Shown: one piece after another, positions 2,724 to 11,084 of the stretch
Layout of the letters: each line of letters opens with the position of its first letter
Position numbering within the stretch: position 1 is the first letter of the stretch
Position numbers and translations under genes: made by a program
Origin: a virus
Virus genome (UHGV): UHGV-1366990
Length of the DNA: 64,000 bases
Strand: one strand, 5' to 3'
The notes under the pieces: model-generated
Seen by the model: only the letters and a program-made list of their open reading frames with translations
What the model was told of the DNA's origin: nothing
Database searches by the model: none

Positions 2724-2915
2724 TCAGTATAATTTCGTGTAAACTTGTTTAACGCCAATATCGGCAGGAGCTGTGCTCTGTTGCATATTATAGAATGCCA
2801 AATCTGCTTGTTCTTTGGTTTCAAAATCAACTACAACTGTGTGTACTGATATTGCTTCACCCTGTCCATAAGCATAACAACGGCTGGTGACCAATATTTT
2901 GTATTGAGGTGTCAT
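2724..2915 (-). CDS. hypothetical protein (63 aa)
   Basis: ORF with AAGGA RBS 8 nt upstream of ATG. Confidence 0.45.
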   Translation of the reverse strand: MTPQYKILVTSRCYAYGQGEAISVHTVVVDFETKEQADLAFYNMQQSTAPADIGVKQVYTKLY

Positions 2916-2940
2916 AAAATCGATCCTTGCAAAAAGAAAG

Positions 2941-2980
2941 GGGAACGGGCTAATAATAACCCATTCCCCTTTATTGAAGG
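2941..2980 (-). terminator. intrinsic terminator hairpin (ggggaa..attcccc) with T-runs on both sides
   Basis: Stem-loop followed by ttcttttt on minus strand, tttatt on plus. Confidence 0.4.
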
Positions 2981-2997
2981 AAGCAACCCCAGTCAGA

Positions 2998-3165
2998 TTA
3001 CTTTTTCTTCAGCTCTTCCAGTTTGGCTTCGATTTGTTCTAAGATATCTTTACCCTTCTGAACAATCACTTCACCATCTTGCGCGTGTTTACGGAAGACC
3101 AGAGCGCCAGCGATGAAGCCGACAACCGCGCCAGGAAGCGCATAAACCAGCAGATCTTGTAACAT
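2998..3165 (-). CDS. small membrane protein (55 aa; MLQDLLVYALPGAVVGFIAGALVF...)
   Basis: Below ORF-track length cutoff; ATG at 3165 with GAGGA 8 nt upstream; one predicted TM helix then charged helix. Confidence 0.4.
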   Translation of the reverse strand: MLQDLLVYALPGAVVGFIAGALVFRKHAQDGEVIVQKGKDILEQIEAKLEELKKK

Positions 3166-3201: not shown

Positions 3202-4437
3202 TCAGCGTTTCAAGAGTGTCATGAGGTTGACGCTGCTGGACTTCGGCTTGTCCTCAACCTTGCGCACAGGCATCTTCAGGTTTGTGTAGACCTCGGACGG
3301 TTCCCAGCGCGTACCCTTTTGCAGGTGCCAGATATGTAGAGGAACACCAGTCTCAAAGAACACAGGCATCTTCCACTTCTGGACGCCTGGAACGTGCCCT
3401 GTAGGAGCCTTTTCACATAACAGGGTATCTGGCAGCCAGAGCGAACGGGCTTCCCAGAGCGCTGCGCAGGAGTATTCAGGCCAGACGCGTTCCATGTAGT
3501 CTATCTCATCCCAGGTACGCTCTGCGTCCCACCCGATGTAACGGGTATTCTTCAGTCGGAAGAATTTCTTCAGCCAACAAGCACCGGAGGTTTCAAAGTT
3601 CAGGCGGTTGATGAACGTCAGGTGCCCGAACTCAGCCACACAATCCTGGAACGCCTGCTCAAGGTCGGCCTCAAGGATGTCACACTCTTCATCCGTGATA
3701 GGACAACCGTTGATCTTTTTCTTCCCGTGTTTAGTCACCCAATCGTCACGGTTGGACAAGAACGCCGCGCCATTACGGTTGGACTCGCTTCCATCACGAT
3801 CACGCAGCATGAAGCCAGGGACGTCAATGGTGTATTCGTTCCCGAAGACCATGTTCAGGGCTTCCAGGAAGTTCCAGGCGCTCAGGCGACCGAAGTATTT
3901 CCAGGACATCGCCGTGTCCCACAGCTGGGTGAATTGTTCTGTCTTATCGATGCACACCAACATCCCACGGAAAGCGTCATATTGAGTACGGCCAGCCAGC
4001 CAGTCAATATAGGACTGAACACACGGGATCATCTTGGACTTGCGGTAGCGACAGTCGGTATCGAATCGCATGCGATCAAAGTTCAGATTATACCAATCAG
4101 AGAAGCGCTGCATCTCTTCTTTGGACTGGGGTGGTACAGGGAACTCACTGTAGATCGTCCACGGCCCGACAGCGTTATAGCAACAACCCCACAGGAATGC
4201 CATCCAGATCTTGCGCTCGACTTTCTGTTCGAGACTGATGCCTTCAGTGACTTCGATCGCATAGTCCATCAGACGCATCTGCTGGTTGTGCTCTTCTGTG
4301 TAGGACAGCGCCTCCACCCAAGCCTTGAGCAGGTACATACGATTCTCAGGCTTGCGATAATCAACAGCCAGGTCAATCGGGTACTTCCATTCAGTCGGAG
4401 GCTTATAGCCCGTCGGCATTTTAGATAAATGATGCAT
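3202..4437 (-). CDS. hypothetical protein (411 aa); candidate nucleic-acid modification enzyme
   Basis: Long ORF with GAGGAAG RBS; Trp/Cys-rich; no motif I can name with certainty. Confidence 0.6.
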   Translation of the reverse strand: MHHLSKMPTGYKPPTEWKYPIDLAVDYRKPENRMYLLKAWVEALSYTEEHNQQMRLMDYAIEVTEGISLEQKVERKIWMAFLWGCCYNAVGPWTIYSEFPVPPQSKEEMQRFSDWYNLNFDRMRFDTDCRYRKSKMIPCVQSYIDWLAGRTQYDAFRGMLVCIDKTEQFTQLWDTAMSWKYFGRLSAWNFLEALNMVFGNEYTIDVPGFMLRDRDGSESNRNGAAFLSNRDDWVTKHGKKKINGCPITDEECDILEADLEQAFQDCVAEFGHLTFINRLNFETSGACWLKKFFRLKNTRYIGWDAERTWDEIDYMERVWPEYSCAALWEARSLWLPDTLLCEKAPTGHVPGVQKWKMPVFFETGVPLHIWHLQKGTRWEPSEVYTNLKMPVRKVEDKPKSSSVNLMTLLKR

Positions 4438-4798
4438 CTTTCGCTTCCTCTTCAGGAGCCACAGCTTCAGGCTCAGGAGCCAGCTGAATATCTTCCGGCT
4501 TCACGAACCCCATCGGACGTTCCCACATATCGACAAAGCGACGGTCAGCGGTCACGAACCACAGACGGGCTGCAGTGTGGGTCTTACCCGAGATGAACAT
4601 CTGAGCATTCGTCTGGGTACGGAACGGAGCAGCCTGCAACCACTTGCCGAAGTCTTTGGACGACGGATTGGCATTCAGCTGGAACTGAGGGATGACGCAG
4701 TTCTTTTCAGGAATCAGGCGCACGGCAGTAATGTGCTTGGCGTTTCCAGTGTAGTCAATCGCAACAGCCACAGCATCGCGAGGGATTTGAATTTTCAT
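4421..4798 (-). CDS. hypothetical protein (126 aa from MKIQIPRD)
   Basis: ORF 4421..4933; internal ATG at 4798 overlaps upstream stop (ATGA coupling). Confidence 0.5.
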   Translation of the reverse strand: MKIQIPRDAVAVAIDYTGNAKHITAVRLIPEKNCVIPQFQLNANPSSKDFGKWLQAAPFRTQTNAQMFISGKTHTAARLWFVTADRRFVDMWERPMGFVKPEDIQLAPEPEAVAPEEEAKDASFI

Positions 4799-4992
4799 TT
4801 TGGTTCCTTGAATATTTTGTAACCAGCAGCGCCGATAGACATCACCGCGCCAATACAGTACATCACAGTCACGTTCAACTTCTCTGAGGTTGTTAAGTCC
4901 AGAGGGGTGAAATGATAGGCTAGGGCAGTACACATTGAAACGGCTGCCATAACCAGACCAATGAACAACAGATAATTAGACAACCGTTTCAT
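4795..4992 (-). CDS. small membrane protein (65 aa)
   Basis: Two hydrophobic helices; ATG at 4992 with AAGGGG upstream (track start is GTG 4998). Confidence 0.45.
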   Translation of the reverse strand: MKRLSNYLLFIGLVMAAVSMCTALAYHFTPLDLTTSEKLNVTVMYCIGAVMSIGAAGYKIFKEPK

Positions 4993-4994
4993 GA

Positions 4995-6593
4995 TCACCC
5001 CTTCTTCATCAGGTCAAGGAGAGAGCGCGACGCTGCCTTCGTTGCTTCTGGCTGGGCGCTCGCCTTGGTTTTAGTTTTGGATGCCTTCTGCGGCTTCTCA
5101 GGCACTCTGTGCGCCAAAGGGTTGCTACCCTTAATCTTGCGCAACATTGGTGTGGTGTCGCAATATTTTTGAAACTCTTCTTTGGACAACCCTCTCAATC
5201 CAACAAAATCTATAATAAAACTACCAATAAAGTGGAGAGGGGCATCGAAGAATTTCAGTATATTCCAACCAACTGCCTTTACACCATTTTCATTCGCTGC
5301 CTTTGCAATGAACAACTCATTCTGAGAGTCTGGTTCAAGTTCGTATCCGATGGAAGCGTACTCACCCATGATCTTGACGTGATCCTTGGTGTATTGTTCA
5401 TTTCTTCCCCAGCCAGTGTCCTTCGCCGCCTTACCAGAACGACCGATGATACGTTTGTCGTAATCTTCCCGCGCTTGGTAAATAAAGGAGATGAATGCCA
5501 TGTTGTTGAACCCCAAGTCCTGGTGTACGAACTCGGGACGCCATCGATGACTCTGCATCATAGGTTCCCCCTCCAAGATGATAGTTGCATCTTTGAACTT
5601 TATTTTGAGATACTTCAACAACGAATTGGCCATCTCAGAAGACTTGAGAGTGGAGTGTATGAAATCCATGGAAGTCCATGATGCTAGACCTGATTTGTTG
5701 GACACTGTATACTTGCCGATGAACACCAGATTGATTTCCTTGAACCAAAACCCAACCTGGATCATCTTCTTGTCGAATTCGTATTCTATGAGTTCTGGCT
5801 CATATTTGGTTCTCAACCACTCAAGGAATTGAACGACACGAGTCCCCTTTCCCGTTCCACTTGTCCCGCGAATAACGACAATACCCGGCGTCACGCTAGA
5901 ATTTATCATAGTCATAAAACGTTTGTCCTCTTTGGGAATCCAACCATCTTTAAACATGGCGATCATATTACGAAAGACGCTCTCATCGCCCTTTAGATTA
6001 CGATACTCTGTGTCCAGTAGTTTAGAATACCACAATCCGATAGATTTGTAACCACATCCTCGTTTTGGCATACTGGTAGGATTCACAGTACCGCCGTTGT
6101 TCACCCATCTATCATAGATCCTACGGGCGTCCTTCCAAACCCACCAATAACCATTTGAAACCATGAATGGGTAGGGAGAATTACCCCTGTTCTCCTTTAT
6201 TGATTTTATTACACGTTCCCGGTATTCTGGATCATCCCAAGGATTTATACCAGATTTGTATTTCTTGCCAGTCCTAGCCAACGCCGCCTTAAATTGGTTT
6301 GGTATGATAGAATTGTCTCCTCCCAATTTCAGGTTCAGACATAACGGGTCCGACAGCAACTCATCCGTAACAATAATAGACTCCAGGTCGGATGCTTCCA
6401 ACCTGGTTTCAAACTTTTCTATTATCGTCTTTGAAAATTCAGAAGCGGGATGGGATTCCAACAACCTTTTGATGATCACACCAGAACCCATATAGGGGTC
6501 TTGTTCAGGAGCACATGAACAAGACCGAATCCCGACGTAGAATCTACCTGTGGGAACATGAGTTATCCTATAGGTGTAATGGTAACGAATCAC
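4995..6593 (-). CDS. GIY-YIG nuclease-like N-terminal domain fused to P-loop NMP-kinase-like domain
   Basis: 532 aa; N-term YTYRITHVPTGRFYVGIRS (GIY-YIG-like); later GTSGTGKGT (GxxGxGKGT P-loop); GTG start overlapping upstream stop. Confidence 0.6.
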   Translation of the reverse strand: MIRYHYTYRITHVPTGRFYVGIRSCSCAPEQDPYMGSGVIIKRLLESHPASEFSKTIIEKFETRLEASDLESIIVTDELLSDPLCLNLKLGGDNSIIPNQFKAALARTGKKYKSGINPWDDPEYRERVIKSIKENRGNSPYPFMVSNGYWWVWKDARRIYDRWVNNGGTVNPTSMPKRGCGYKSIGLWYSKLLDTEYRNLKGDESVFRNMIAMFKDGWIPKEDKRFMTMINSSVTPGIVVIRGTSGTGKGTRVVQFLEWLRTKYEPELIEYEFDKKMIQVGFWFKEINLVFIGKYTVSNKSGLASWTSMDFIHSTLKSSEMANSLLKYLKIKFKDATIILEGEPMMQSHRWRPEFVHQDLGFNNMAFISFIYQAREDYDKRIIGRSGKAAKDTGWGRNEQYTKDHVKIMGEYASIGYELEPDSQNELFIAKAANENGVKAVGWNILKFFDAPLHFIGSFIIDFVGLRGLSKEEFQKYCDTTPMLRKIKGSNPLAHRVPEKPQKASKTKTKASAQPEATKAASRSLLDLMKKG

Positions 6594-6895
6594 ACAGCAT
6601 CCTCAATACGCCAGCTCACGCCGCCCAGCCAAGGTGCCCAGAACACAGCAACCTGTGGGCGGCCATTCTCTTCAAACTTAACTTTATACTGGTCGTCGAA
6701 GTTATAGAAGATTTCATCTGCTTCAGAGCGCTGGCCGATCTTCACCAGTACATCATGAAGAGCCTTGGCTGCACCGATAGGAGTTGGAGTCTCCTGCTGA
6801 CGAATGAAGTTGTTCACATAGATAATCACACCATCCATGTCGCTATCACCGGAATGCTTGTCTGGGGTTTCCCCAAACTTGGATTGTTCTTGCAC
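6590..6895 (-). CDS. hypothetical protein (101 aa)
   Basis: ORF with AGGAGGA RBS before GTG start. Confidence 0.45.
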   Translation of the reverse strand: MQEQSKFGETPDKHSGDSDMDGVIIYVNNFIRQQETPTPIGAAKALHDVLVKIGQRSEADEIFYNFDDQYKVKFEENGRPQVAVFWAPWLGGVSWRIEDAV

Positions 6896-6904
6896 GATGT
6901 CCTC

Positions 6905-7684
6905 CTATCGGACGTATTGATAATGACTAATCAGGCGGTTAACCACTTCAACAATATTGTGGTTCAGGAAGTCGAAGTGATTCTGGCCTTCTACTGGTTT
7001 AATATAAAGCATGTCTTCCGAATTCGAAAGATCCAGTTTTTCATAATTGCCCTGAGGAACAAAGATGACAAAGATGTTGTTCAGGCCGCACGGCTCGACA
7101 TACTTCGGATTGTCATCAATCAGGACATCGCCAGCCAGCAGATGCTTTTCGTCGGTGCTGACAAACCCGTTGAAGATACCAGGGAACTTATCATAGACAA
7201 ACTGACGCTTGCTGCGCTCGTGTTCCGGCTCGCACTTCGACACCGCGATGAATTCAACATTGTCGAAATCTTCAAGCAAGATATCCTTCAGATTTACCAG
7301 GAACTCGTAAGCGCCGGGGAGCGGGTTCATCTTGGCGTACAAGTCAGGGCGACGCCACCAGTCCATAGGATCGTTACCGCTTGGCACACGTTGTTTGTGC
7401 ATCCCCAATTGGACTTCATGGTATAGCCACGCCGGATGCGCACGTTCACGCATCAGAATAGCCAGGTCGCCAGCATGGGACATATAACACTCTTTAGTGA
7501 TCGGCTGGAACTGGTATGACTTATGTTCCCCCGTAGCGATAGCAGCGGCGGCGATGTTCTCTTCGTTAAACCACTGCACCCAAGGGGAGAGGCTGTCGAC
7601 CAACGTCAGGTCAACATCCACGAGGACGCGATACAGGCCACCGACCTTTGATTTCATATCATAGATACAAACCAGGTTGTTCAT
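6905..7684 (-). CDS. HAD-superfamily hydrolase-like protein (putative nucleotidase/phosphatase)
   Basis: 259 aa; N-terminal VLVDVDLTLVD matches HAD motif I (DxDx[TV]L); GAGGA RBS. Confidence 0.5.
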   Translation of the reverse strand: MNNLVCIYDMKSKVGGLYRVLVDVDLTLVDSLSPWVQWFNEENIAAAAIATGEHKSYQFQPITKECYMSHAGDLAILMRERAHPAWLYHEVQLGMHKQRVPSGNDPMDWWRRPDLYAKMNPLPGAYEFLVNLKDILLEDFDNVEFIAVSKCEPEHERSKRQFVYDKFPGIFNGFVSTDEKHLLAGDVLIDDNPKYVEPCGLNNIFVIFVPQGNYEKLDLSNSEDMLYIKPVEGQNHFDFLNHNIVEVVNRLISHYQYVR

Positions 7685-8022
7685 TTGTCTTCCTCAACTT
7701 TATCGTAGCCTGTAGCAACACACTGTTCTTCGGTACAATCTGCATACAGAACGACGGAGGCCTGCTTCACGTAGGTGATGCAGTGGTAAGTTTCGTCTTC
7801 CTGGACGGAATCGTCATAGTTGCAGACAGTTTGGAGCGGACCTGGGGTAGTGTTGTCCAGTGCTGCATGCGCCTTGATGGTGTCTTCCATCTTGGACACG
7901 GCCTGTTCATTGGTGAACGTCGGCGCGTCAAGGTCTACAGTAGACGCAACGTCCAGAAGGGTGGAACACGCAGTGGTAGAGAAAGCCAGAGCGCACACCA
8001 GAAGAATCTTATTGAGTTTCAT
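7681..8022 (-). CDS. putative secreted lipoprotein
   Basis: Signal peptide MKLNKILLVCALAFSTTAC with lipobox-like Cys; AGGTGA RBS before ATG at 8022. Confidence 0.5.
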   Translation of the reverse strand: MKLNKILLVCALAFSTTACSTLLDVASTVDLDAPTFTNEQAVSKMEDTIKAHAALDNTTPGPLQTVCNYDDSVQEDETYHCITYVKQASVVLYADCTEEQCVATGYDKVEEDK

Positions 8023-8084
8023 TTCAATCACCTGTTTGTCAAAGGGTTAACAGGGGGAATTATATCCCCCTTTGGTTTATTGAA

Positions 8085-11084
8085 TCAACCTTTCTTCTTT
8101 TGCATCATGGCAAGAAGGTTCACACGGCGCTTGTGTGACCAGCCGACCACGTCGAGGATAGACTGAATCGGATCAATGAAGGACTTCTCAAAGGCCGCCT
8201 GATAATCCACCCATTTGCCCAGACCAAGCTCCTCAGGGAAGAACTCAGGATATGCAAAGTAGTTCTGCCCAAACGGGTTGCCCGGCTTCAACAACACCAT
8301 CTGTACCTTATCACCCGACTCGATCATCGGTAGACCCAGATCTTCGTTCTTCTCAACCAGACGGTTGTAGCCCACACACGCCTTGGCAGCAAAATGAGCA
8401 CCAGAGATGAACGATCCGTCAGCAGCCACACACTTCTCTATGTCGGACACGCCGGAAGCCTTGGCGATATCGTCTACAGAGAGTTTCATGTACTCCTCTT
8501 TGTACTGGGAGATGAGCGCCTGTACTTCCTCTTCGGTGCCGAGTAGGATCTTCTCATAACACTTGACAAGACGCTCACGACACCATTCCGGCGTGGTGGA
8601 CTTGCGGGCTTCCAGACCTTTGAACTTGATCTTCGGCTTCTCGTACTTGATACCCTCACTGTCGTACACGGCCATGGCATACATCTTCTTGGCTCGCCAT
8701 ACAGCGGCTGACGCAATGACCTCACGCTCCCATACCATACGCTGTTCAAATCCGTTCATGGTGTTACACAGAAGCTGTGCCCACTCATTGGTCTTCGGCT
8801 GGTAGTTGTCTTTGATCCATTGGTCGATATTATCAACCATAGCATGATGGTCAGTAACATCAGGCCACAACTGCTTGACAAGACGCTCAATGCAGATGTA
8901 GTTGGAGTCGGTATCCCCTGCGATGACGAAGTCCTGGCCTGTTGTACCACACAGCTTGTTCAGATAGTCATCAGTGTAACGCTTGTTCCACTTGTTGATC
9001 AGCTGACCGGATGTGGTGATGGCTTCGGCAATGTTGAGGTTGAAGTACTCTTTGAACCAGACGTTCGAGATAGCGCCATAACCTGCGTTCATCAAGATCT
9101 TCAGACCTTGCTGTAGGGTATCTTGAGCGACGCCCAGGTCTTCCCACTTCTTCATCACTTCGGTCAGGGCATCAAGATCAATGTTCTTGTGCTCTTCATA
9201 CCACTCTGGGTCATAATAGCGAGACTTCATGGCAGACTCAAGATGGAAGTCACCCTTCGACATCTCTTTACACCAGCCAGCCCACTGCTCATACTTCAGA
9301 CCCTTAGCTTTCTCTACTTTACGGTCGCTGTAGATACCACGCATGATTTCAGACAGGAACGACATCTTCTCGTTGCTGAAGAATTGAACGTTCGGCGTGA
9401 ACGACACGTTGTAGCGGCGCAGGGTTTCAAAGTGGAACTCACCCAGGGCAACCAACTCATCAACAACCTGCAGGCGTTCGTCAACCGCACGCAACAGCTT
9501 GTCGTGAAGGGCTTTCATCAACCGACGTTTGTGCATCGGCGTTGCCATGTTATTCATCTGAGCAGCCAGCTCTTCACACATAGCCTCAATAATCTCACGG
9601 CGCTGGTGTTTGTCGCCAACGATAGTCTCAGGACCGAGGTTGTATTGCTGAATGATGTGAGGATACAGGGAGTTCAAATCTTCCGAGAAGACCCAGAAGT
9701 AGATTCCTGGTGTCACATCCATGACGTATGCACCCTCAAAGTCGGTCGGACCATCGTATACACGCTGGATCTTAGGCACTATGCCCTTCTCATACAGACG
9801 ATAGTAGCACATGGCCAGCCACGGAGCCACAGTGCCCAGACCGTCTTCATAGTTGGACTTGGTGCGGTAGGCCAGGACGAACATCAGCTGGAGCAGGCGC
9901 AGCTTCTGTTCAAGTCGCCATACCAGCTTAACGTCTTTGATACCATATCGGGTGTGTTTACAGTAGTCGTTGAAGTACAGATCAAAGAGCGACTTTCTCT
10001 CACTGTAGTCCATCTTCTTCTCACCCAGCTCACAATACGCAATCCAGTCAAGAGAGTAGCGTTCACGGGTGGTGTACGTGTGTTTCTTGTAGATCTGCAT
10101 ATAATCGAGCATAGGGCAACCCACGAACTGATACGTCGTGATATCGCCCTTCTTATCGCGAATGATACGCTTCTTAATGATACCCCAAGGACTGAGGCGC
10201 GACGTTTCAGCCTCACCCAGAACCTGATTCATGCGCTCAACGAGATAAGGGCTATCGAACGTCTCAATGTTCCAGCCTGTCCAGCCATCAAACTGACGCT
10301 GTGACCAGAAGTCTAGGAAAGATCGCAGCAGATCTTGTTCGGTGGTGAACTCCTGATAAACAACCTCAAGACCGCCGATCTCTTTGTCTTCGGTGTCATA
10401 GGCGAATTTGTTACGATCTTTGGCACAGGGCATACCCCAGACCATGAACTTATTGGTCGCCATATCCTGAAGCTGGATCAGGGTAATGGGGAACGCCGCA
10501 TTCATGTCTTGGGTGATCTTGCCGTTGCTGTCAATGATAGGGAACTGATCAGTGACGTTGTTGCTGATGAAAGAACCAGGGAAGTGCTCACGGATGAAGT
10601 CATGGTTGGCCAGTACCTGCTGATGGAAGCGGCGAATGCGCGCCTCATTCCCTTTGAACGTCTGCTGCTCAATGGTTGGGTGAGGGAATGGACCTTTGGT
10701 CATCTTTCCATCTTTCCACCCGGCGGAGAACACTTCGATATCGAGGTTAGCAATATGGATGTTGGAATAATCCGGCTCAATCTTTCCAGGAAAGCTATGG
10801 GCGATGAACTGGTATGCATAATCGGTCTGCCCGTAAATGGCAGCACCCTGGACTTCCTTGTACTCTTCAAGATAGTTGTCAGCGTCACGCATGGAAGGGA
10901 ACTGCTTGGCTACCAGGGGTTCATTGAGAAGGCCGACCTTTTCAACATTTGAATAGTCAGCCGTGGGTAAATAGAGAGTGGGTTCGAATTTCTTTTTCAA
11001 CAGACGGCGATTACCCATGTCATCTGCAATTCGAATCAACAGGTCATTGCCCCTGCGGGCAACGTTCGTATAGAAAACGGTCAT
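8085..11084 (-). CDS. gp43: DNA polymerase, family B (T4 gp43-like)
   Basis: 999 aa; N-terminus and overall layout parallel T4 gp43 (exonuclease then polymerase region); GGAG RBS. Confidence 0.93.
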   Translation of the reverse strand: MTVFYTNVARRGNDLLIRIADDMGNRRLLKKKFEPTLYLPTADYSNVEKVGLLNEPLVAKQFPSMRDADNYLEEYKEVQGAAIYGQTDYAYQFIAHSFPGKIEPDYSNIHIANLDIEVFSAGWKDGKMTKGPFPHPTIEQQTFKGNEARIRRFHQQVLANHDFIREHFPGSFISNNVTDQFPIIDSNGKITQDMNAAFPITLIQLQDMATNKFMVWGMPCAKDRNKFAYDTEDKEIGGLEVVYQEFTTEQDLLRSFLDFWSQRQFDGWTGWNIETFDSPYLVERMNQVLGEAETSRLSPWGIIKKRIIRDKKGDITTYQFVGCPMLDYMQIYKKHTYTTRERYSLDWIAYCELGEKKMDYSERKSLFDLYFNDYCKHTRYGIKDVKLVWRLEQKLRLLQLMFVLAYRTKSNYEDGLGTVAPWLAMCYYRLYEKGIVPKIQRVYDGPTDFEGAYVMDVTPGIYFWVFSEDLNSLYPHIIQQYNLGPETIVGDKHQRREIIEAMCEELAAQMNNMATPMHKRRLMKALHDKLLRAVDERLQVVDELVALGEFHFETLRRYNVSFTPNVQFFSNEKMSFLSEIMRGIYSDRKVEKAKGLKYEQWAGWCKEMSKGDFHLESAMKSRYYDPEWYEEHKNIDLDALTEVMKKWEDLGVAQDTLQQGLKILMNAGYGAISNVWFKEYFNLNIAEAITTSGQLINKWNKRYTDDYLNKLCGTTGQDFVIAGDTDSNYICIERLVKQLWPDVTDHHAMVDNIDQWIKDNYQPKTNEWAQLLCNTMNGFEQRMVWEREVIASAAVWRAKKMYAMAVYDSEGIKYEKPKIKFKGLEARKSTTPEWCRERLVKCYEKILLGTEEEVQALISQYKEEYMKLSVDDIAKASGVSDIEKCVAADGSFISGAHFAAKACVGYNRLVEKNEDLGLPMIESGDKVQMVLLKPGNPFGQNYFAYPEFFPEELGLGKWVDYQAAFEKSFIDPIQSILDVVGWSHKRRVNLLAMMQKKKG

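Follow-up and report, generated by a model that had tools for sequence, protein, structure and literature searches.

The fused gene and its locus

What lies directly downstream of the DUF7254 gene in ViI-like phages of the family Ackermannviridae? In virus genome UHGV-1366990, of which a stretch of 64,000 nucleotides (the window) was analysed, the answer is a single minus-strand gene, at 4995-6593, that encodes a putative GIY-YIG homing endonuclease joined to a P-loop kinase. There are no internal stops across the 532 codons of its open reading frame (ORF), and the in-frame fusion is confirmed as real. A preliminary description of this DNA had reported the union, quoting two strings that are both present in the single 532-amino acid ORF, and had rightly called it unusual. 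Only 29 of about 270 Ackermannviridae records carry it. The T4-like setting given there was mistaken: the phage is a ViI-like member of the Ackermannviridae. Over this region its identity is 98% with Salmonella phage vB_CECAV_050 and 91% with the Dickeya Limestonevirus phages.

The order of genes in the window is DNA polymerase, DUF7292, NT5C, DUF7254, the fused gene, two small genes and the amino acid:DNA transferase (ADDT) gene, which is the order found from orf236 to orf247 in phage ViI; the ADDT gene is three genes downstream of the fused ORF. Orthologues of the fused ORF in phages vB_CECAV_050 and fGh-Ecl02 are 98-99% identical to it, and orthologues have their start codon, GTG or ATG, at the same position. 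The profile phrog_15209 matches residues 35-532. The coordinates of the features are collected in Table 1.

Table 1. Features of the fused gene and its neighbours, in window coordinates.
Feature	Position	Strand	Evidence or remarks
Fused ORF, orthologue of LIMEstone1 'F-LimXI'	4995..6593	-	532 amino acids plus stop, single frame
Start codon GTG	6591..6593	-	overlaps the DUF7254 stop codon as GTGA
Shine-Dalgarno GAGGA	6600..6604	-	6 nucleotides 5' of the GTG start, read from the sequence
Predicted GIY-YIG catalytic domain, residues 1-95	6309..6593	-	Y8, Y19, G21, R23, D32-Y34-G36-S37-G38, E71, N87, G91-G92
Variable linker, residues 96-147	6153..6308	-	low conservation, low pLDDT
C-terminal endonuclease region, residues 148-235, presumed DNA-binding domain	5889..6152	-	conservation, PHROG matches, free-standing relatives
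Candidate internal start	5907..5930	-	GAGG 5927..5930; ATG of M227 5913..5915; M229 5907..5909
Predicted 5-hmdU DNA kinase core, residues 236-491	5121..5888	-	Pfam HMUD2
P-loop GTSGTGKGT	5841..5867	-	within the kinase core
Basic C-terminal tail (PLAHRVPEKPQKASK...LMKKG)	4995..5120	-	right-hand recombination junction
Foreign cassette, endonuclease plus divergent kinase core, ~1.47 kb	5121..6589	-	homology breaks against LHE287
Upstream DUF7254 gene, annotated 'putative thioredoxin'	6590..6895	-	Pfam DUF7254, E 3.7e-52; its stop codon is the left cassette border
Downstream ADDT gene, ViI gp247 orthologue	3202..4437	-	Pfam ADDT, E 7e-60; synteny with ViI orf243...orf247

The N-terminal endonuclease

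The N-terminal domain has the beta-beta-alpha-beta-alpha core fold of the GIY-YIG family. Its motif tyrosines, Y8 (YTY) and Y19 (YVG), have a spacing of 11 and are invariant in all fused members and in the alignment with Seg proteins and I-TevI, and E71 and N87 are invariant among the fused members. In the MAFFT alignment N87 shares a column with the catalytic Asn of I-TevI, N90. E71 falls one column off the catalytic Glu of I-TevI, E75, and in SegE, SegC, F1_0141 and the XF4 endonuclease its column is occupied by Glu. The domain is collinear with annotated SegE/SegC-type proteins and keeps all of the shared positions, which are Y8, Y19, G21, D32, Y34, G36, S37, G38, F53, E71, N87, G91 and G92. 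We regard the assignment of the N-terminal part as a predicted SegE-like GIY-YIG nuclease domain as settled. A basic residue follows the YVG strand (R23; His in SegE and in clade B, one of the two deep fused clades described below), and it could substitute for the catalytic Arg. Searches of PDB sequences with the full protein and with the N-terminal profile gave no meaningful match.

The catalytic domain is followed by a linker, residues 96-147, that shows only 5-16% identity between fused clades A and B, with 2 of 52 columns invariant. It had been called NUMOD-like, but Pfam NUMOD1, NUMOD3 and NUMOD4 gave no match at E<=10 in the window protein and none at E<=1 in seven N-terminal modules. 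Conservation rises in residues 148-235 to 49-55% identity between the clades and 38% invariant columns (49% in residues 201-235), compared with 33-40% identity and 23% invariant columns for the GIY-YIG domain and 38-41% and 32% for the kinase. This region has no Pfam match and no reliable structure prediction. In the AlphaFold2 (AF2) model the predicted local distance difference test (pLDDT) score is below 50 for residues 99-232, too low for the fold of the presumed DNA-binding region or the domain contacts to be read from it. Residues 119-233 match several 'homing endonuclease' PHROGs, and the succession of conserved (1-95), variable (96-147) and conserved (148-235) segments is the layout of homing enzymes, common to the free-standing homologues.

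An exhaustive profile search with residues 1-235 against 1.84 billion representative proteins returned 22,345 matches at E<=0.001 and 9,191 at E<=1e-10. Nearly all of the best 150 listed are free-standing proteins of about 120-350 amino acids, and the only kinase fusions among those 150 are P0004 and P0007. The free-standing proteins P0065 (288 amino acids) and P0106 (281 amino acids) cover the module from residue 4 to about residue 230, ending at the junction; P0065 is encoded by a stand-alone gene at an unrelated locus on a 158.7-kb contig. Because both terminate at the junction-aligned position, the fusion is end-to-start, with the endonuclease C-terminus placed onto the kinase N-terminus practically without a linker. 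We regard it as settled by these alignments that the N-terminal ~233 residues represent a whole endonuclease, comprising catalytic domain, linker and presumed DNA-binding region, and not the ~90 residues given in the preliminary description.

The 5-hmdU DNA kinase

The kinase half, residues 236-531, matches Pfam HMUD2 (PF18747, '5-hmdU DNA kinase 2') with an E value of 3.8e-156 and 519 bits against a cut-off of 25, covering positions 2-298 of the 298 in the profile. It retains every one of the 49 columns that do not vary among 38 aligned homologues, fused and unfused, and its AF2 model is a confident P-loop kinase fold. Because the match spans the whole profile and every invariant column is kept, a nucleotide kinase is ruled out, and the P-loop half of the preliminary description is, by homology, a 5-hydroxymethyldeoxyuridine (5-hmdU) DNA kinase of the thymidine-hypermodification pathway. 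Synteny makes it the positional orthologue of Salmonella phage ViI gp243, with which it shares the Pfam family and all of the invariant residues. Unlike the window protein, gp243 has 304 amino acids and no N-terminal module; it is about 45% identical to the window kinase domain and falls in another of the deep lineages. Both gp243 and the paralogous gp67 of ViI transfer one phosphate onto 5-hmdU in DNA in vitro (PMC8989533), and gp247 is a serine:DNA transferase that acts after the kinase en route to 5-(2-aminoethoxy)methyldeoxyuridine (5-NeOmdU) (PMC8989533; PMC5889632).

Comparison with ViI gp67 found no second kinase paralogue of this type in the 64-kb window. A gene of the metagenomic contig L013 that matches Pfam 'HMUDK_hel' was considered as a second kinase and rejected, as it is an aGPT-Pplase1-type paralogue. 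The ViI gp67-type kinase itself (8204-8866 in the ViI record, L020) is widely mislabelled, in many records, as 'terminase small subunit' or 'thymidylate kinase'.

Allelic states of the kinase locus

Three states of the locus can be discerned among the Ackermannviridae. The majority, including ViI, Cba120, LHE287, Magnus and dinky, have the kinase alone, with about 300 amino acids. In the second state a SegD-like GIY-YIG gene encoding 228 amino acids stands as a separate ORF exactly between DUF7254 and a gp243-type kinase of ordinary short type. It is found in more than 20 enterobacterial Ackermannviridae records from four genera, where some close relatives have it and others lack it, and Vibrio relatives carry it at 61% identity; its carriers include Dickeya phage XF4 (L001 2313-3921), Shigella phage Ag3, Salmonella phage P46FS4, allotria, PWKp5 and Vibrio phage D506. 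The SegD-like protein is a different endonuclease, only 26% identical to the fused one and with a canonical RxxxH motif. In XF4 its stop codon overlaps the kinase start out of frame (AAATGGCTAA), and one frameshift would therefore fuse the two genes; this arrangement is likely to be a model of the pre-fusion state. The third state is the fusion, carried by Limestonevirus, Agtrevirus, Kuttervirus (UTK0004, PMBT18) and Taipeivirus (KpS110) phages and by Yersinia phage YEP3, always as an intact ORF of 529-532 amino acids, and intact also in metagenomes.

Because the unrelated SegD-like gene fills the same slot, the 5' flank of the kinase gene is a place where endonuclease genes insert recurrently, and it exists in at least three allelic states. 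The preliminary description had raised the possibility that relatives encode the two parts as separate genes. Relatives do have the kinase alone, or a different GIY-YIG protein and the kinase as two ORFs, but the endonuclease-kinase lineage studied here is fused in every member found, and the fusion is therefore a real conserved allele and not an annotation error.

In P46FS4 (L003 ~2870-3083) there is a 1-nucleotide deletion in the P-loop codons of the kinase (ACGGG-AAAGG), beside the SegD-like gene, and the record annotates only a 230-amino acid kinase product from an internal Met. The P46FS4 kinase is either a pseudogene or the product of a sequencing error.

Cassette borders and transfer

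Where does the fused allele begin and end as a unit of exchange? Against LHE287, which has the kinase alone and is 97.6-98% identical in the flanks, homology stops at 6589, at the DUF7254 stop codon, and resumes at 5120, which is codon 492 ('PLAHRVPEK...'). The intervening ~1.47-kb cassette stands in for about 790 bp of the short kinase allele, and its kinase core has 45-50% protein identity to that of the resident allele. The C-terminal tail, by contrast, has its last 41 residues identical to those of LHE287 and, at the nucleotide level, matches the short-kinase allele at ~98%. Comparisons of KpS110 with Magnus (Taipeivirus), UTK0004 with dinky (Kuttervirus) and LIMEstone1 with XF4 (Limestonevirus) give the same left border; the right borders vary.

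The cassette of the Kuttervirus phage UTK0004 is 94-96% identical to that of the window (92-96% counting the next small gene), whereas its flanking NT5C and DUF7254 genes are only ~76% identical to the window, like those of other Kuttervirus phages. This contrast indicates a recent transfer between subfamilies. A 67-amino acid membrane protein encoded downstream of the fusion (4795-4998, minus strand) is 92% identical in UTK0004 and only ~30% identical in other Kuttervirus phages; it travelled with the cassette. An ORF of 170 amino acids in the ORF list (4421-4933, minus strand) overlaps the gene for this protein, and relatives have it annotated at a shorter length. The fused gene has diverged about as much as its neighbours in KpS110 and in the metagenomic contigs L015, L013 and L014, and the allele is therefore also old.

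Age of the fusion and selection on its parts

More distant full-length fusions were found at 64% identity (P0004 and P0005) and at 38-40% identity (P0006 and P0007); the local gene order of the latter two is different, and ADDT is again adjacent. A tree of the kinase domain contains three deep lineages, fused clade A, fused clade B and the unfused kinases, which are mutually 41-46% identical. Each fused clade is recovered in 200 of 200 bootstraps, and the monophyly of all fused kinases in only 16 of 200. With the tree undecided on this point, it is from the shared architecture and junction that we infer a single fusion origin. Neither a clade-A or clade-B kinase without the endonuclease module nor, in members of the fused clades down to 38% identity, a stop codon at the junction was found. 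The endonuclease part has a ratio of nonsynonymous to synonymous substitution rates (dN/dS) of 0.11-0.23 and the kinase core one of about 0.04, values that indicate purifying selection on both halves.

Other features of the region

A sigma-70 promoter scan of 4400-8200 was uninformative, with 11 promoter-like sites against 5.6 +/- 2.6 expected, and gave no site above 9/12 inside the fused gene. A terminator-like hairpin with a 10-bp stem and a poor T tail (6383-6406, minus strand) lies within the GIY-YIG coding region and is probably a chance occurrence. The DNA polymerase gene (8085-11084, minus strand) is one uninterrupted ORF of 999 amino acids in the window, whereas the LIMEstone1 polymerase gene is reported to have two endonuclease-containing introns (PMC3296691); the content of mobile elements therefore differs between close relatives.

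Proposed origin and spread of the fused allele

What might explain why an endonuclease shares a reading frame with a DNA-modifying kinase? The explanation that we favour, with a probability of roughly 60%, is that a homing endonuclease gene became fused to a divergent, putatively cleavage-resistant kinase allele, and that the joint allele spreads by gene conversion. Free-standing homing endonuclease genes normally adjoin the gene that they target. The endonuclease gene would have begun as a free-standing gene directly 5' of the kinase gene. Its stop codon would have overlapped the kinase start, as that of the unrelated gene does in XF4, and a small frameshift or the loss of the stop codon would have joined the two. 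The kinase would phosphorylate 5-hmdU in replicated phage DNA, and the adjacent amino acid:DNA transferase would displace the phosphate toward hypermodified thymine. In a mixed infection the allele that lacks the endonuclease would be cut by the nuclease within or close to the kinase gene, with the fused allele serving as template for the repair. The divergence between the two kinase cores is too great for them to recombine, and the entire core would therefore be co-converted along with the endonuclease; the nearest usable homology would lie in the upstream gene and, at the other end, in the conserved 3' tail or in sequence farther downstream. Such limits match the observed cassette borders. 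The fused allele would be immune to its own nuclease, because its kinase sequence differs, and fusion to a strongly selected enzyme would make the selfish gene hard to lose while giving it expression signals. The preliminary description had offered either a captured homing endonuclease or a bifunctional enzyme; the former, understood as the joining of an endonuclease with a resident gene, accounts best for the findings, and the latter is a rival to it.

Several observations weigh against this explanation. The helix that carries Arg27 and His31 in I-TevI is absent, with a short DxYxGSG loop in its place, from the window protein and from all aligned SegE/SegC-type sequences. Because the whole SegE-like subgroup lacks the helix, we view its absence as a trait of the subgroup and not as a loss in this protein. 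Of the catalytic Arg and Glu that the preliminary description proposed to look for by alignment, the Glu is present as E71 and is invariant, as are N87, Y8 and Y19, but there is no Arg helix of the I-TevI type. The window domain alone scores only 18.8 bits (E 0.002) against Pfam SegE_GIY-YIG (PF19835), under the gathering threshold of 25 bits, although seven of eight clade members match that family (best E 2.6e-8); its assignment there therefore draws on the family taken together and on the fold, not on its own score. A gp67-type second kinase is present in phages bearing the fused allele, which makes the need for the fused kinase less certain. The divergence seen in KpS110, L015 and L013/L014 fits long vertical residence no less well than transfer. 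Ordinary homologous recombination in a co-infection could replace the allele with just such borders, with no endonuclease involved, and the patchy presence among close relatives, the fixed site and the flank co-conversion pattern, all of which are seen here, are compatible with plain recombination too. Lastly, residues 148-235 are the most conserved segment of the fused protein between the clades and could serve the kinase.

That last point would also favour the main rival, a domesticated endonuclease, in which the module serves the kinase by DNA tethering or targeting, or by nicking or recognition in hypermodification, and the protein is a bifunctional enzyme. Retention of the fusion to 38% identity in two clades, purifying selection on the whole N-terminal part, the failure to find a clade-A or clade-B kinase without the module or any reversion to two genes, and the use of polymeric DNA as kinase substrate (PMC8989533) all point in the same direction. 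We nevertheless consider domestication rather unlikely. Unfused orthologues such as ViI gp243 act on DNA without a module (PMC8989533), and they are the majority state; the catalytic GIY-YIG residues are invariant, where drift would be expected if DNA binding alone were needed; and if the two clades bind one conserved target, high conservation of the DNA-binding region would follow as well. The patchy spread, the sharp borders and the recent transfer between subfamilies look like the behaviour of a mobile element, and an unrelated free-standing endonuclease gene uses the same slot. Somewhat more doubtful in our view is a neutral read-through fusion, in which the kinase would be made mainly from an internal start and the full-length protein would be a tolerated by-product without joint function. 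The check for an internal start or frameshift suggested by the preliminary description revealed one uninterrupted frame, and GAGG does lie 9-11 nucleotides 5' of an in-frame junction ATG in all fused lineages (M227 in the group of the window, M229 elsewhere), with M229 invariant among the fused members. Unfused kinases begin only a few residues past M227/M229, and the genes of XF4 are one frameshift away from such a fusion. The sequence thus permits a kinase-only product, but it argues for one weakly, because the Shine-Dalgarno spacing is long and conserved Asp/Glu codons dictate part of the motif. An accidental fusion should also have split in some lineages, and none of those compared has a stop at the junction; with no stop codon there, the endonuclease can be produced only as the fusion.

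Could the endonuclease be a decaying remnant, or the fusion an artefact of assembly or annotation? Gene callers often start at M35 and so lose the GIY motif, as in the phrog_15209 match from residue 35 and in P0003 (495 amino acids), and the sub-threshold Pfam score of the window copy would fit decay. We consider this very improbable. Intact copies of the ORF occur in metagenomes as well as in 29 independent genomes, the dN/dS of the endonuclease part is not near 1, the motif residues are all invariant, and the upstream start has a good Shine-Dalgarno sequence and a conserved GTG or ATG; as far as sequence evidence reaches, a remnant or artefact is already refuted.

Relation to known systems

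Both parts of the protein are known; the novelty lies in their union in one frame, in the conservation of that union and in its behaviour as a cassette. The T4 endonucleases SegE and SegC are active site-specific enzymes that mediate marker-biased gene conversion. Together with SegD-like proteins, these free-standing Seg-type endonucleases of T-even phages, whose free-standing relatives number in the thousands, have the same collinear catalytic positions and domain layout as the window protein, and the SegE/SegC type has the DxYxGSG loop; unlike it, they are encoded by separate genes for about 200-290 amino acids, whereas the window frame runs on into the neighbouring enzyme. The similarity to I-TevI (the T4 td intron endonuclease; PDB 1LN0) is only 17-18% identity; I-TevI is intron-encoded, unlike the window protein, in which no zinc finger or NUMOD-type element was detected. 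The endonucleases of inteins, and of fungal mitochondrial intron ORFs fused to the upstream exon, also share the reading frame of their host for expression. These elements interrupt the host gene and are taken out through splicing, of protein or of RNA, or through proteolysis, whereas the endonuclease of the window is joined to the N-terminus of an intact enzyme, and no splicing element was detected. Natural fusions of other 5-hydroxymethyluracil DNA kinases (5-HMUDK), with an enzyme that depends on pyridoxal phosphate (PLP) or with aGPT-Pplase, and SP10 gp186 with its extra C-terminal domain (PMC8989533), indicate that the kinase tolerates being part of multidomain proteins. Their partners are enzymes of the same pathway, whereas the partner here is a predicted nuclease.

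The records and the literature have seen one half or the other. The fused gene is labelled 'homing endonuclease' or 'P-loop kinase' but never both, and other records label it 'P-loop nucleotide kinase2'. In the 2012 paper on LIMEstone1 the gene, ORF186 or F-LimXI, is listed among GIY-YIG endonucleases as a free-standing one resembling SegB, and the kinase goes unrecognised (PMC3296691). Neither of the two primary hypermodification papers (PMC5889632, PMC8989533) mentions a GIY-YIG or homing-endonuclease partner of the kinase, a recent review of the Ackermannviridae mentions neither homing endonucleases nor the kinase, and a targeted literature search gave nothing further. Among the labels, 'putative homing endonuclease F-LimXI' has been given to XF4 ASD51567 (L001 2992-3921), a plain kinase of 309 amino acids. 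Vibrio phage GR28A QJT71442 (L002 2950-3753), labelled 'GIY-YIG domain-containing protein', was considered as an independent fusion and rejected, as it is a plain kinase of 267 amino acids. Both labels appear to have been copied from a fused orthologue.

Significance for the Ackermannviridae

The fused gene could be viewed as a selfish element tied to a useful gene, one that is joined to the enzyme next door, kept across deep divergence and held under purifying selection. It also raises the question of whether a GIY-YIG nuclease could cut 5-hmdU or hypermodified DNA, and whether the attached kinase would matter. One tentative reading, to which we give little more than an outside chance, is that the two halves are one machine, in which the nuclease would be gated by the kinase domain or by how far the thymines at the target are phosphorylated or hypermodified, or in which the DNA-binding domain would direct the kinase to its sites. 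If that were true, self would be told apart from competitor, or new DNA from mature, by base modification, and the protein would be a self/non-self weapon in competition between hypermodified phages; it would also account for the junction-proximal region being the most conserved and for the fusion not having reverted to two genes. The kinase opens the thymidine-hypermodification pathway of the Ackermannviridae, phages that are widely used in biocontrol of Salmonella, E. coli O157, Klebsiella and Dickeya. Interchange among its allelic states could affect modification chemistry, competition during co-infection and recombination in phage cocktails.

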